Positions 37,824-41,579 are shown, counted from the first letter of the stretch. The stretch is 64,000 bases of DNA from Dehalococcoidia bacterium (GCA_034434875.1 DAOTYJ010000115.1:3213-67212); one strand, 5' to 3'. The notes: generated from the letters alone by a model not told the origin. Made by a program: numbers and translations.

Positions 37824-38945
37824 TTAGAACCGTAGCAGGGCGGCGATGCCGCCGACGGCGTCGAGCTTTTCGCCCCCCTTCCCCCGCACCAGCTCCACCC
37901 GGGCCTGCTGCCGGAGCATCGCCCGGATGAGGCTTTCGATCAGGTCGTTTACGTGGAGAAGGGGCTCCCCGCACAGGGGACAGGCGCCCCCGTCGGGCCG
38001 GGTGCCGATGAACCCGCAGTTGGGGCACTCATACCCCTCGGGCCGGAAGGTCTCGGTTATGAGCAGGCGCATTATCCGGTTCTCCAGGGCCGCCCGGACC
38101 GTATCGTCCAGGCCCACCGTGGCCGGCCCGCCCTTGGCGGCCAGCTCGAGGGTCTGGTCCACCAGGCCGAGCTCTTCTTCCCTTTCGAGGGCCTGCTCCA
38201 GCTCGAGGGTCTTGTAAAGAATCTCCTCGGGCGGGGCGATGGTCTGGGCGGTGAAGGTGCCCACCAGCTTCGACTCAAGTTCCTTGGGCAGAAGGTCCAC
38301 AAAGGTGCTTAAGGCCTCCGTCGGGCCGGCCACCACCAGCCGGTCGAAGGGATGGCGGGCCTCGAAATCCCGAAGCTCCTCCAGGGTGTGCTTTACGTGC
38401 CAGACGACGTGGGTCTCGTGGTGGCGCTGGAAGTCGGCCGAGGACCAGCCCCCCTGCTTGTGCTTTTTGACGACCAGGTCGGCGAACTCATCCAGCTCGA
38501 CGATTTTTGCCAGCTCGACGAAGAAGAGCCTGGCCCGGGCCTTGTCCAGCAAAAGCACCGCGTACCGGTCGTATTCGTCGAGCAGGTCCACCAGCGGCCG
38601 GATGTACGGGACCGTGTCGTAGTGGGCCTGGTCCCGGGGCCGGGTGTGGAGGAAGACGACCTCCCAGAAATCCTCGGGAATGCACGAGTAAACCGCCACC
38701 CCGAGGCCGTGGGGGGTAAAGTGGCGCTCAAAGTAATCGTCAATTTTTTCGATTTCGGCCTCCAAAAGCCGGCGCTTCTCTTCGGGAACCCGGCGCCGCA
38801 GCTCGTCCAAGAGGCTTTTGCGAACCACGTGGTAAGTTCGGTTCTGACTCTCCGGCGGGGAGATGTCGAGGACCAGGCTGAGCACATCGGCCCGCCTGGG
38901 CTTAAAGGCGGCGATTCGGTAAACCTGGTCCCGCCCTAGTTCCAT
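37824..38945 (-). CDS. bacterial eRF1/Pelota-like protein (baeRF1 / 'host attachment' family) with C-terminal zinc ribbon
   Basis: 373 aa; central loop VVKKHKQGGWSSADFQRHHE (Gln/Gly-rich, reminiscent of release-factor catalytic loops) and C-terminal CPNCG-x13-CPLCG zinc ribbon; no classical bacterial family signature; 31 nt downstream of clpB on the same strand. Confidence 0.5.
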   Translation of the reverse strand: MELGRDQVYRIAAFKPRRADVLSLVLDISPPESQNRTYHVVRKSLLDELRRRVPEEKRRLLEAEIEKIDDYFERHFTPHGLGVAVYSCIPEDFWEVVFLHTRPRDQAHYDTVPYIRPLVDLLDEYDRYAVLLLDKARARLFFVELAKIVELDEFADLVVKKHKQGGWSSADFQRHHETHVVWHVKHTLEELRDFEARHPFDRLVVAGPTEALSTFVDLLPKELESKLVGTFTAQTIAPPEEILYKTLELEQALEREEELGLVDQTLELAAKGGPATVGLDDTVRAALENRIMRLLITETFRPEGYECPNCGFIGTRPDGGACPLCGEPLLHVNDLIESLIRAMLRQQARVELVRGKGGEKLDAVGGIAALLRF

Positions 38946-38975
38946 CTGCCTCCTCCGGCTGTTTTTTCGGTTTCC

Positions 38976-41579
38976 TCAGGCCAGGGGCGCGGCCACCGGG
39001 GCCTTGCGCAGCACCACCGAGCCGGCCTCCGCATCCACGATGACCGTATCCCCGGGCTGAAATTCCCCGGCCAGGAGCCGCACCGCCAGGGGGTCCAGAA
39101 CCGTCCGCTGGATGACCCGCTTGAGGGGTCGGGCCCCGAAGTTGGGGTCGAAGCCCAGCTCGGCCAGCAGGTCCCGGGCCGCGTCCGTAACCTCCAGGTT
39201 GACCTTCTGCTCGGCAAGCCGCTCCCGAACCTGCCGCATCTGGATGTCCACGATCTGCCGCAGGTCTTCCCGGTCCAGCGGCCTGAAGACGATGATTTCG
39301 TCGATCCGGTTAAGGAACTCCGGCCGGAAGTGGGCCCGGACGGTGTTGAGCACCAGCTGCCGGACGTCTTCCAGGCTCAGGCCCGGCTCGCTGAACCAGT
39401 GGCTGCCCAGGTTGCTGGTCATGATGATGACGGTGTTCCGGAAGTTTACGGTGTGTCCGTGGCCGTCGGTGAGCCGGCCGTCGTCCAGGATCTGCAGTAA
39501 GACATTAAGCACGTCGGGGTGGGCCTTTTCGACCTCGTCGAAGAGGACGACGGCGTAGGGCCGCCGGCGGACCGCCTCGGTGAGCTGGCCCCCCTCCTCG
39601 TAGCCGACGTAGCCGGGCGGGGCCCCGATGAGCCGGGCCACGGTGTGCTTCTCCATATACTCCGACATATCTAGCCGAATCATCGCCTGCTCGTCGTCGA
39701 AGAGGAACTCGGCCAGGGCCCGGGCCGTCTCGGTCTTACCCACCCCCGTGGGGCCGAGGAACAAGAAGCTGCCCAGCGGCCGGCGGGGGTCCTGGATGCC
39801 GGCCCGGGCCCGGCGGATGGCGTTGGCCACCGCGCTGAGGGCGTGGTCCTGGCCCACCACCCGCTGCCGGAGCCGCTCCTCCATCCGGAGGAGCTTCTCC
39901 CGCTCGCTCTCCAGCAGCCGGCTCACCGGGATGCCCGTCCAGCGGCTTACGATTTCGGCGATATCCTCCTCGTCGACTTCTTCTTTAACGAGCCGCCGCG
40001 GCCCGAGGGCTGCCAGCTGCTGTTCAGCCTCCCGGAGTCGGCGCTCCAGCTCGACCAGCACCCCGTACTGGAGCTGGGCCGCCCGGTTCCAGTCGCCGGC
40101 GAGCTGGGCCTGCTCCAGCTGGTGCCGGGCGGCCTCAAGCTCTTCTTTAAGCTGGCGGATCTGCTGGATGAGCTCCCGCTCCCGTTCCCACTCGAGCTTA
40201 AGCCGGTTGAATTCTTCCTTGAGGTTGCTCAGCTCCTGCTCGATCTTTGCCAGCCGCTCCCGGGAGGCCGGGTCCGTCTCCCGCTTGAGGCCCTCCCGCT
40301 CGACTTCTAGCTGGATAATCCGGCGCTGGAGCTCGTCCAGCTCGGCCGGCATCGACTCCATCTCCATCCGGAGCTTGGCCGCCGCCTCGTCCACCAGGTC
40401 GATGGCCTTGTCCGGCAGGAAGCGGCCGGTGATGTAGCGGTGGGCCAGCTGGGCGGCGGCCACCAAAGCCGAGTCCTTGATGCGCACCCCGTGGTGGACC
40501 TCGTAGCGCTCCTTAAGGCCCCGCAGGATGCTGATGGTCTCCTCGACGGTGGGCTCCTCCACCAGGATGGGCTGGAAGCGGCGCTCCAGGGCGGGGTCCT
40601 TCTCAATGTGCTTGCGGTACTCGTCGATGGTGGTGGCCCCGACGGTGCGGAGCTCGCCCCGGGCCAGCATCGGCTTGAGCATGTTGCTGGCGTCGATGGC
40701 CCCCTCGGCCGCGCCGGCCCCCACCACGGTGTGGAGCTCGTCGATAAAGAGGATGATCTCCCCCTGGGATTCCTGAATCTCCCGAATGACGGCCTTAAGG
40801 CGCTCCTCGAATTCGCCCCGGTAGCGGGCCCCGGCGATGAGGGCGCCCATATCCAGCTGGACGATCCGCTTGTTTTTAAGGCCCTCGGGGACGTCGTTGC
40901 GGACGATCCGCTGGGCCAGGCCCTCGACGATGGCCGTCTTGCCCACCCCGGGCTCGCCGATGAGGACCGGGTTGTTCTTGGTCCGGCGCAGGAGCACCTG
41001 GATCACCCGCCGGATCTCCTCATCCCGGCCGATGACCGGGTCCAGCTTGCCCTGCCGGGCAAGCTCGGTAATATCCCGGCCGTAGCGCTGAAGGGCCTCG
41101 TAGGTACTTTCGGGATGGGGGGAGGTGACCCGCTGGGCGCCCCGGACTTGGGTGAGCACCTGGTAGATGCGGTCCCGGGTGATGCCGAAGCCCTGGAGGA
41201 TCCGCAGGGCCGGGCCGCCCACGGCGGGGTCGGCCATGGCGATGAAAAGGTGCTCGGTGCTGATATAGTCGTCCCGCAGCCGGCCGGCCTCCTCCTGGGC
41301 CAGGTCCAGCACCCGCTTCAGCCGGGGCGACACGTAAACCTGGGCGGGCGGCGTCTGCAGCCGGGGGAAGAGCCTTAAGGCGCCCTCCACCGAATCCCGC
41401 AGGCGGCTTAAGTCGATACCCAGGCGCTCGACGATCCGGGGTACAACCCCGTCCGCCTGGTCGAGCAGGGCCAGCAGCAGGTGCTCGGGCTCTACCTGCT
41501 GGTGCTGACGCCTTTCGGCCTCACTCTGGGCCCCGAAGAGGGCCTGTTGGGCTTTTTCGGTGTAGCGGCTCAGGTCCAT
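38976..41579 (-). CDS. clpB: ATP-dependent chaperone/disaggregase ClpB
   Basis: 867 aa; two AAA+ modules with Walker A GEPGVGKT and GPTGVGKT, long coiled-coil middle domain, N-terminal Clp_N repeats. Confidence 0.95.

Follow-up and report, generated by a model that had tools for sequence, protein, structure and literature searches.

What does the gene directly behind clpB do in a Dehalococcoidia bacterium? We address this question for a 64,000-nucleotide stretch of DNA (GCA_034434875.1, DAOTYJ010000115.1:3213-67212), hereafter the window, in which an open reading frame (ORF) at 37824-38945 follows clpB on the minus strand. A sequence-only reading of the window had proposed that the two genes form a stress-rescue unit, in which a disaggregase is made together with a putative release-factor-like hydrolase. 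We find that the ORF encodes a complete protein of baeRF-1 family 10, built like the archaeal and eukaryotic release factors (aeRF1), and that genes of this family recur beside protein quality-control genes across phyla. Its nearest tested relatives are the Balon hibernation factors, which the sequence-only reading passed over. We see about an even chance that the protein is a stress-induced, stop-codon-independent A-site factor that, like Balon, halts or protects ribosomes.

37824-38945, minus strand: baeRF-1 family 10 gene, encoding a predicted A-site factor of 373 amino acids (aa) with three domains, resembling aeRF1 and Balon (PF18854, AlphaFold2 model, Foldseek).
38946-38975, minus strand: spacer of 30 nucleotides (nt) between clpB and the baeRF gene, with the Shine-Dalgarno sequence GGAGGAGG at 38949-38956.
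38976-41579, minus strand: clpB, encoding an ATP-dependent disaggregase of 867 aa (TIGR03346, Pfam).

The 373-aa protein begins MELGRDQ and matches the Pfam family baeRF_family10 (PF18854) with E = 9.5e-37 and 126.9 bits against a gathering cut-off of 27.1. This match covers residues 113-250, the middle RNase H-fold domain, and profile positions 1-142 of 143. A second Pfam match, to eRF1_3, covers residues 259-373. The architecture of aeRF1 is therefore complete, with an N-domain, a middle domain and a Pelota/eRF1_3 C-domain. The earlier expectation that Pfam would return eRF1 or Host_attach matches was right as regards eRF1. Its placement in the baeRF1/Host_attach clade holds for the aeRF1-like baeRF-1 family but not for Host_attach (PF10116), which stays below its gathering cut-off (15.5 bits versus 26.7, E = 0.027).

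Together with the PF18854 match, the 2,084 representative clusters recovered at E <= 1e-30 in an exhaustive HMMER search identify the ORF as a real gene. Its G+C content at third codon positions (GC3) is 0.85, compared to 0.85-0.91 in the neighbouring genes, and we take the gene as native because of this agreement; recent horizontal transfer was considered and rejected on the same ground. Family 10 was defined computationally in 2019 by Burroughs and Aravind (PMC6514570; PF18854). The protein reaches neither the aRF1/eRF1 equivalog TIGR03676 (66.7 bits versus a cut-off of 234.7) nor the Pelota/Dom34 equivalog TIGR00111 (21.4 versus 177.65). Because its aRF1 score and its Balon equivalog scores, given below, lie far under the cut-offs, we assign it to the computationally defined family 10 and to no experimentally characterised family. 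The acVLRF1 Pfam model (PF18859) gives 32.9 bits (cut-off 27.1), over the same stretch that the far stronger family-10 match covers. Membership of acVLRF-1, a Vms1-like clade, was considered and rejected: the loop reads GGWSS and not GGxSQ, and the N-terminal domain is retained.

The fold points to Balon. An AlphaFold2 (AF2) model of the protein has a predicted local distance difference test (pLDDT) score of 84.6 and a predicted template modelling (pTM) score of 0.75, and is uncertain only in the tip loop at residues 157-167, where low pLDDT is expected of a flexible tip. Searched with Foldseek, this model retrieves ribosome-bound Balon (8v9j and 8v9l, template modelling (TM) score 0.75-0.78) as top match and aRF1/eRF1 next, with full-length alignments to Balon and eRF1; Pelota structures rank below both (TM <= 0.43). 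A profile built from 110 family members and run against solved structures gives the same picture, aligning to Msmeg1130 over its full length (E = 1.6e-38), followed by aRF1 (9.6e-32), Rv2629 (2e-21) and Psychrobacter urativorans Balon (2e-12). P. urativorans Balon, Mycobacterium smegmatis Msmeg1130 and M. tuberculosis Rv2629 are the tested Balons (Helena-Bueno et al. 2024, PMC10901736). There the term 'Balon homologues' is used for every bacterial homologue of aeRF1, and these are described as inhibiting translation, occupying the A site and adjoining Hsp20, DnaK and DnaJ genes.

The layout at the locus is that of an operon. The upstream same-strand gene is clpB, as had been proposed: its product scores 1381.1 bits against the TIGR03346 cut-off of 1232.1 over residues 6-857 of 867, has the N-domain, both AAA+ modules and the long M-domain, and carries the Pfam domains Clp_N, AAA, AAA_lid_9, AAA_2 and ClpB_D2-small. 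The two genes are as close as had been claimed, although the gap is 30 nt (38946-38975) and not 31. Within this spacer GGAGGAGG stands six bases before the baeRF ATG, and we found neither a terminator-like site nor a stable hairpin, the spacer folding less stably than shuffled sequence (z = +1.06). The absence of an obvious terminator was likewise correctly anticipated. Spacer, Shine-Dalgarno sequence and gene order are the same in three close relatives (L001, L002 and L081; proteins 86-91% identical).

Upstream of clpB we find two candidate control elements.

41615-41623, minus strand: candidate promoter, an extended -10-like element TGGTATAGT that lies 35 nt before the start codon of clpB.
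41631-41649, minus strand: candidate repressor operator, a perfect 7-bp inverted repeat (TCTTAGC-N5-GCTAAGA) ahead of clpB.

The -10-like element is invariant in L001 and L002 and was missed by a consensus promoter scan owing to its poor -35. The inverted repeat is the sole match in the window, where 0.05 are expected by chance, and of the surveyed loci only L001 and L002 have it at the corresponding position. We looked through the window and all loci for CIRCE, HAIR and CtsR boxes, allowing up to 3 mismatches, and found none near the relevant promoters. Because no such operator was found we can only infer heat-shock control of clpB, and the heat-shock-type promoter that had been assumed for it is not confirmed. 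Rfam at gathering thresholds and scans for tRNA and tmRNA gave no matches in the window, so no RNA element explains the locus.

Is the linkage to clpB a property of the family? We scanned one genome per species with patterns drawn from the 8 closest sequences, which returned 80 loci, mostly from Chloroflexota, Dictyoglomota, Eisenbacteria, Actinomycetota, Stahlbacteria/WOR-3 and Nitrospirota bins; labels among the related bins include Dictyoglomaceae and Ardenticatena. Gene calls in these loci are crude, being the longest non-overlapping ORFs, and since many contigs end near the family-10 gene the neighbour counts are lower bounds. The arrangements around the family-10 gene (X) were as follows.

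clpB upstream of X, in the order of the window: L001 and L002.
dnaJ-X-clpB, with clpB directly downstream and gaps of ~20-30 nt: five Anaerolineae loci.
clpB 1.3 kb downstream and dnaK upstream of X: L071.
hsp20-lon-X: six Dictyoglomota loci; lon-X: one Binatia bin.
dnaK-(ECF sigma)-X, with a sigma factor gene of the extracytoplasmic function (ECF) type: Ardenticatenia and relatives.
hsp20-X: one Rokubacteria bin.
HtrA gene beside X: L004 and L013.
Get3/ArsA ATPase gene, its product with an HSP20-like domain, upstream of X: seven Actinomycetota loci.
Protein-isoaspartate methyltransferase (PCMT) gene directly upstream of X: nine Eisenbacteria-type loci.

Adjacency to clpB was found in only 8 of the 80 loci; it is therefore conserved in a few lineages but is not a general property of the family. 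The ClpB-family protein of the dnaJ-X-clpB loci has a short M-domain and, with 1087 bits, lies under the ClpB cut-off. Genes for classical proteostasis factors (ClpB, DnaK, DnaJ, Hsp20, Lon, HtrA) stand within ~3 kb in 24/80 loci, and when Get3-HSP20 and PCMT are counted too the number rises to 40/80. In this survey family 10 is tied to protein quality-control genes across phyla, and not to clpB specifically or to HPF. Of the proposed stress module, then, the operon-like layout and the repeated chaperone and protease links stand, while a pairing specific to clpB is not established.

These figures bear on whether the adjacency could be incidental synteny, with the family-10 gene under its own regulation and serving a role unrelated to ClpB, for example stationary-phase hibernation. 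The order with clpB upstream is confined to the very close relatives L001, L002 and L081, no clpB lies nearby in 72/80 loci, the genes from 42866 to 33520 are co-directional and include unrelated metabolic ones (CoA transferase, enolase-superfamily enzyme, amidohydrolase, aldehyde dehydrogenase), and a recognised heat-shock operator is lacking. Against this, clpB takes a second order in Anaerolineae (dnaJ-X-clpB) and a third in L071, and other heat-shock genes hold the same position in other phyla. The arrangements vary from phylum to phylum, so common ancestry by itself does not account for the proteostasis link. Gene classes of this kind usually amount to well under 1% of a genome, compared to their presence in 24/80 loci. 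The 30-nt gap, with its Shine-Dalgarno sequence and no terminator, also argues for a real linkage. We therefore regard incidental synteny as rather improbable.

Several lineages show further regularities around the gene. The seven Actinomycetota bins (L045, L049, L053, L056, L067, L070, L076) carry the Get3/ArsA-type ATPase, whose HSP20-like domain is C-terminal, ~1.2-1.8 kb upstream of the match, and before the family-10 gene also a small conserved ORF of ~80-120 aa that matches DUF5304 only weakly; one genome bin holds two copies of the Get3-baeRF cluster, L067 and L070. In the Eisenbacteria-type bins (L041, L046, L052, L054, L055, L058, L063, L066, L068) the gene directly preceding baeRF is pcm, encoding the protein-repair enzyme protein-L-isoaspartate O-methyltransferase, within the string pyruvate kinase - nicotinate phosphoribosyltransferase-like - GalT-like - pcm - baeRF - ABC ATPase.

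The hsp20-lon-baeRF loci of Dictyoglomota have an inverted repeat, GTGAT-N4-6-(A/G)TCAC, just upstream of a TATAAT box (L016:3060-3130, L021:3085-3125, L051:3090-3125, L073:850-880). It is a lineage-specific candidate heat-shock operator unlike the TCTTAGC-N5-GCTAAGA of the window. Upstream of dnaK in two Ardenticatenia-type loci (L024:2830-2870, L039:2785-2825) we find a conserved CTAACAG-N12-CTGTTAG inverted repeat, including TCTCTAGCAC, which may be another lineage-specific operator.

Next, we asked what the protein itself says about its activity. It carries two motif elements.

38415-38468, minus strand: tip loop of the middle domain, KKHKQGGWSSADFQRHHE (residues 160-177), which takes the position of the GGQ loop and reads GGW.
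37971-38027, minus strand: four-Cys zinc ribbon C307-P-N-C310...C322-P-L-C325, inserted in the C-terminal eRF1_3/Pelota-type domain.

The locus patterns contain HxQGG and QRHxExH, which biases the 80 loci towards members that keep the loop. For this reason we took motif frequencies from the pattern-free HMMER search instead, using its best 157 matches and the window protein (n = 158). When aligned with aRF1, the GGQ falls on G165-G166-W167 of the window protein and eRF1 R192 corresponds to R174. The consensus of the tip loop is VPGKH[KD]QGGWSQARFQRH, and 87% of members keep G165, 76% keep G166 and 94% keep R174. The residue at the position of the GGQ glutamine is Trp in 91/158, and a canonical GGQ occurs once in 158. 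Glutamines flanking the Gly-Gly pair are frequent (Q164 49%, Q169 55%), the latter giving the form GGWSQ. The window protein has Q164 (QGGW) and a Ser in place of Q169 (GGWSS), and its close relatives read GGWSS or GGWSA. Thus a central loop had rightly been noticed as rich in Gln and Gly, but it lacks the canonical GGQ, having Trp at the Gln position here as in most of the family.

The stop-codon recognition motifs NIKS and YxCxxxF have no conserved counterpart at the aligned positions, in both the aRF1 and the profile alignments. The window protein shares with Balon the lack of both GGQ and NIKS. With aRF1/eRF1 it shares the domain order, the zinc ribbon of the C-domain and the aligned Gly-Gly and downstream Arg, and it differs from them in having GGW for GGQ, in lacking NIKS/YxCxxxF and in falling below TIGR03676. 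A genuine alternative stop-codon release factor was among the candidates tried and was rejected for the absence of the stop-codon motifs and of GGQ.

The C-terminal zinc ribbon is present as claimed, with four Cys, but its CxxC knuckles are 10-11 residues apart (FIGTRPDGGA) and not 13. It aligns with the ribbons of the aRF1 structures 4af1 and 3ir9, and all four Cys are kept in 146 of the 158 members. Msmeg1130 has a Cys-less hairpin as the corresponding C-domain insertion, in agreement with a proposal that the beta-hairpin seen in other baeRF-1 families represents a zinc ribbon that has degenerated (PMC6514570). In Balon this beta-hairpin is the contact with EF-Tu (PMC10901736). An 'HP' of Msmeg1130 (FIHPL) aligns with a conserved [RK]-P-L, R116-P117-L118 in the window protein; equating it with the HP motif of Balon is a guess. 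Judged by these features, family 10 looks intermediate between a true release factor and Balon, and having kept both the aRF1 zinc ribbon and the Gly-Gly loop it would be the least derived branch.

How, then, should the activity be read? We favour a Balon-like factor on three grounds: Trp stands in for the catalytic Gln, the motifs for stop-codon recognition are missing, and Balons are the nearest matches by both fold and profile. The three-domain aeRF1-like fold, for which Balon is the best structural match to the window protein and the best profile match to the family, is accompanied by a further likeness, the placement in stress-response gene clusters with chaperones.

The main alternative is that family 10 is an active, stop-codon-independent peptidyl-tRNA hydrolase, which would enter the A site of heat-stalled ribosomes and free nascent chains for refolding or degradation by ClpB, DnaK or Lon, as a bacterial counterpart of Vms1-Cdc48. 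Several observations weigh against the Balon-like reading or speak for hydrolysis. In a single-sequence search of solved structures the best match is catalytic aRF1 (4af1, E = 5e-12) and Balon reaches only 0.007. The window protein is far under the cut-offs of all three NCBIfam Balon equivalogs, NF052288 (75.4 versus 480), NF052289 (40.9 versus 320) and NF052287 (28.5 versus 330). The Gly-Gly pair, which falls on that of GGQ, and the loop around it are, in the alignment, among the most conserved parts of family 10 (HxQGGW, compared to ERAGQM in Msmeg1130), and the length of this loop is under constraint, 79/158 members having the modal 25 residues. A constrained loop has been described as a mark of active families, and family 10 was singled out as possibly catalytic, with a well conserved catalytic-loop Gln, in a text that carries no statement of which Gln is meant (PMC6514570). 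The family consensus GGWSQ resembles the GGxSQ motif given there for aVLRF-1/acVLRF-1, and the acVLRF1 Pfam model scores above its cut-off, as noted above. An intact zinc ribbon, as in catalytic aRF1, stands in place of the defining beta-hairpin of Balon.

The neighbours add to these points, being genes for protein handling (ClpB, Lon, HtrA, DnaK/J, Hsp20, PCMT). HPF/RaiA is the commonest neighbour of Balon genes (PMC10901736), and HPF linkage has been reported for baeRF-1 families generally (PMC6514570). In our 80 loci, by contrast, HPF/RaiA (Ribosomal_S30AE) does not appear in the list of the 25 commonest Pfam families of the two nearest genes on each side, where the smallest listed count is 3, so that rare cases are possible. 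Our literature search also found no ribosome-binding, expression or phenotype data for any family-10 protein.

Nonetheless, a bulky Trp occupies the catalytic Gln position in 91/158 members and a canonical GGQ is found once. The window protein, with GGWSS and no Q169, does not have the GGxSQ motif, and the closest relatives by profile and fold are the non-catalytic Balons. With Trp at the Gln position, the canonical motif gives no indication of hydrolase activity. In release factors the two glycines weigh more in catalysis than the Gln side chain, and because of this GGW is compatible with activity. We consider hydrolysis possible but less likely, and the release-factor-like hydrolase that had been proposed is not established.

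Under the Balon-like reading, we infer ribosome binding, the lack of catalysis, co-induction with clpB and the physiological role as follows. A tRNA-shaped, three-domain family-10 protein would be encoded by the distal cistron of a clpB transcription unit. This position predicts that it would be made alongside ClpB when the clpB promoter fires in proteotoxic stress, so that factor and disaggregase would be co-produced. The protein would occupy the A site of the ribosome independently of any stop codon, with the conserved HxQGGW loop placed at the peptidyl-transferase centre and the zinc-ribbon C-domain turned towards the EF-Tu/factor-binding side. Ribosomes would thereby be kept arrested and protected, with peptidyl-tRNA not hydrolysed, and less new unfolded protein would enter while ClpB and its partners clear aggregates.

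The closest eukaryotic analogy is Vms1/ANKZF1-Cdc48, in which an aeRF1-superfamily protein is likewise paired with an AAA+ unfoldase; it is an analogy only, the link to ClpB here being one of gene order. The family consensus GGWSQ is similar to the GGxSQ of the related acVLRF-1/aVLRF-1 families; the window protein differs by its GGWSS and by keeping the N- and C-terminal domains that are modified or lost in VLRF-1 families. The possible hydrolase activity raised in PMC6514570 concerns the very family of the window protein; the main text of that paper mentions for family 10 neither chaperone or protease neighbourhoods nor anti-sigma fusions.

Such fusions do occur in the family. Among 8 longer family-10 proteins scanned, 7 matched an N-terminal zf-HC2 anti-sigma-factor zinc finger, 3 above the Pfam cut-off and 4 below. 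These proteins (P0007, P0012, P0020, P0051, P0060, P0094, P0128) are 458-623 aa long and retain the whole release-factor-like module; the architecture is a minority one, at ~5% of the HMMER representatives listed. Immediately upstream of the family-10 gene, L005, L007, L009, L024 and L034 have an ECF sigma gene, often after dnaK.

L009:5189-5947, L024:5060-5731, L034:5076-5813 and L007:3941-5992: ECF sigma genes.
L024:5728-7104 and L034:5810-7083: family-10 loci of the fusion subgroup.

'Alternative sigma-70 factors' are listed among the neighbours of Balon (PMC10901736), and we found no mention of a zf-HC2/family-10 fusion in PMC10901736 or in the main text of PMC6514570. The sequences hint that the zf-HC2-fused module may be an anti-sigma factor that senses the state of the ribosome. 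The window protein, too, might be mainly a sensor of ribosome state that signals to the stress response rather than an effector of translation. The fusions and the upstream ECF sigma genes would fit such a role. The window protein lacks the extension, however, no sigma factor gene adjoins its gene, and the fused form is a small part of the family; we think a primarily sensory role very unlikely.

The rescue and signalling ideas can also be combined. A heat-shock-regulon rescue hydrolase with a non-canonical QGGW(SQ) loop, analogous to Vms1-Cdc48, might have zf-HC2-fused forms that also report ribosome state to the dnaK-adjacent ECF sigma factor, a combination that we put forward tentatively and consider unlikely.

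Two further features of the window concern neighbouring genes. Behind the baeRF gene lies a spacer of 63 nt (37761-37823, minus strand). It has a perfect TATAAT that precedes the enolase-superfamily gene start by 37 nt, and it lacks a clear terminator. The metabolic genes downstream may have their own promoter or be transcribed by read-through from clpB. On the opposite strand, some 4 kb away from clpB, is a gene for a 474-aa AAA_2/AAA ATPase (45485-46906, plus strand), HslU/ClpX-like by domain content, followed by rpsB (47029-47823, plus strand) and a short tsf of 173 aa (47826-48344, plus strand). No hslV-like partner was noted beside it; the preceding gene encodes a UPF0047 protein (45047-45445).

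Part of this picture was already on record: family 10 itself, hibernation by Balon, and Hsp20, DnaK and DnaJ genes as its neighbours, so the earlier claim that the pairing is undescribed holds only in part. ClpB goes unmentioned in PMC10901736, and our literature searches on ClpB with Balon or baeRF, and on eRF1-like bacterial rescue factors, found no paper describing the clpB pairing and nothing else of relevance.

It was not until 2024 that bacterial aeRF1-like proteins were demonstrated to act as hibernation factors, and tests cover only three Balons, of the Actinobacteria/Psychrobacter type (PMC10901736). Family 10 differs from them in two of their defining structural features, which bears on whether it is catalytic. 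If its members only block the A site, the heat-shock response of Chloroflexota, Dictyoglomota, Actinomycetota and other phyla would come to include Balon-type hibernation. If they hydrolyse peptidyl-tRNA, family 10 would represent a new bacterial route of ribosome rescue and a surviving intermediate form that links release factors to hibernation factors.

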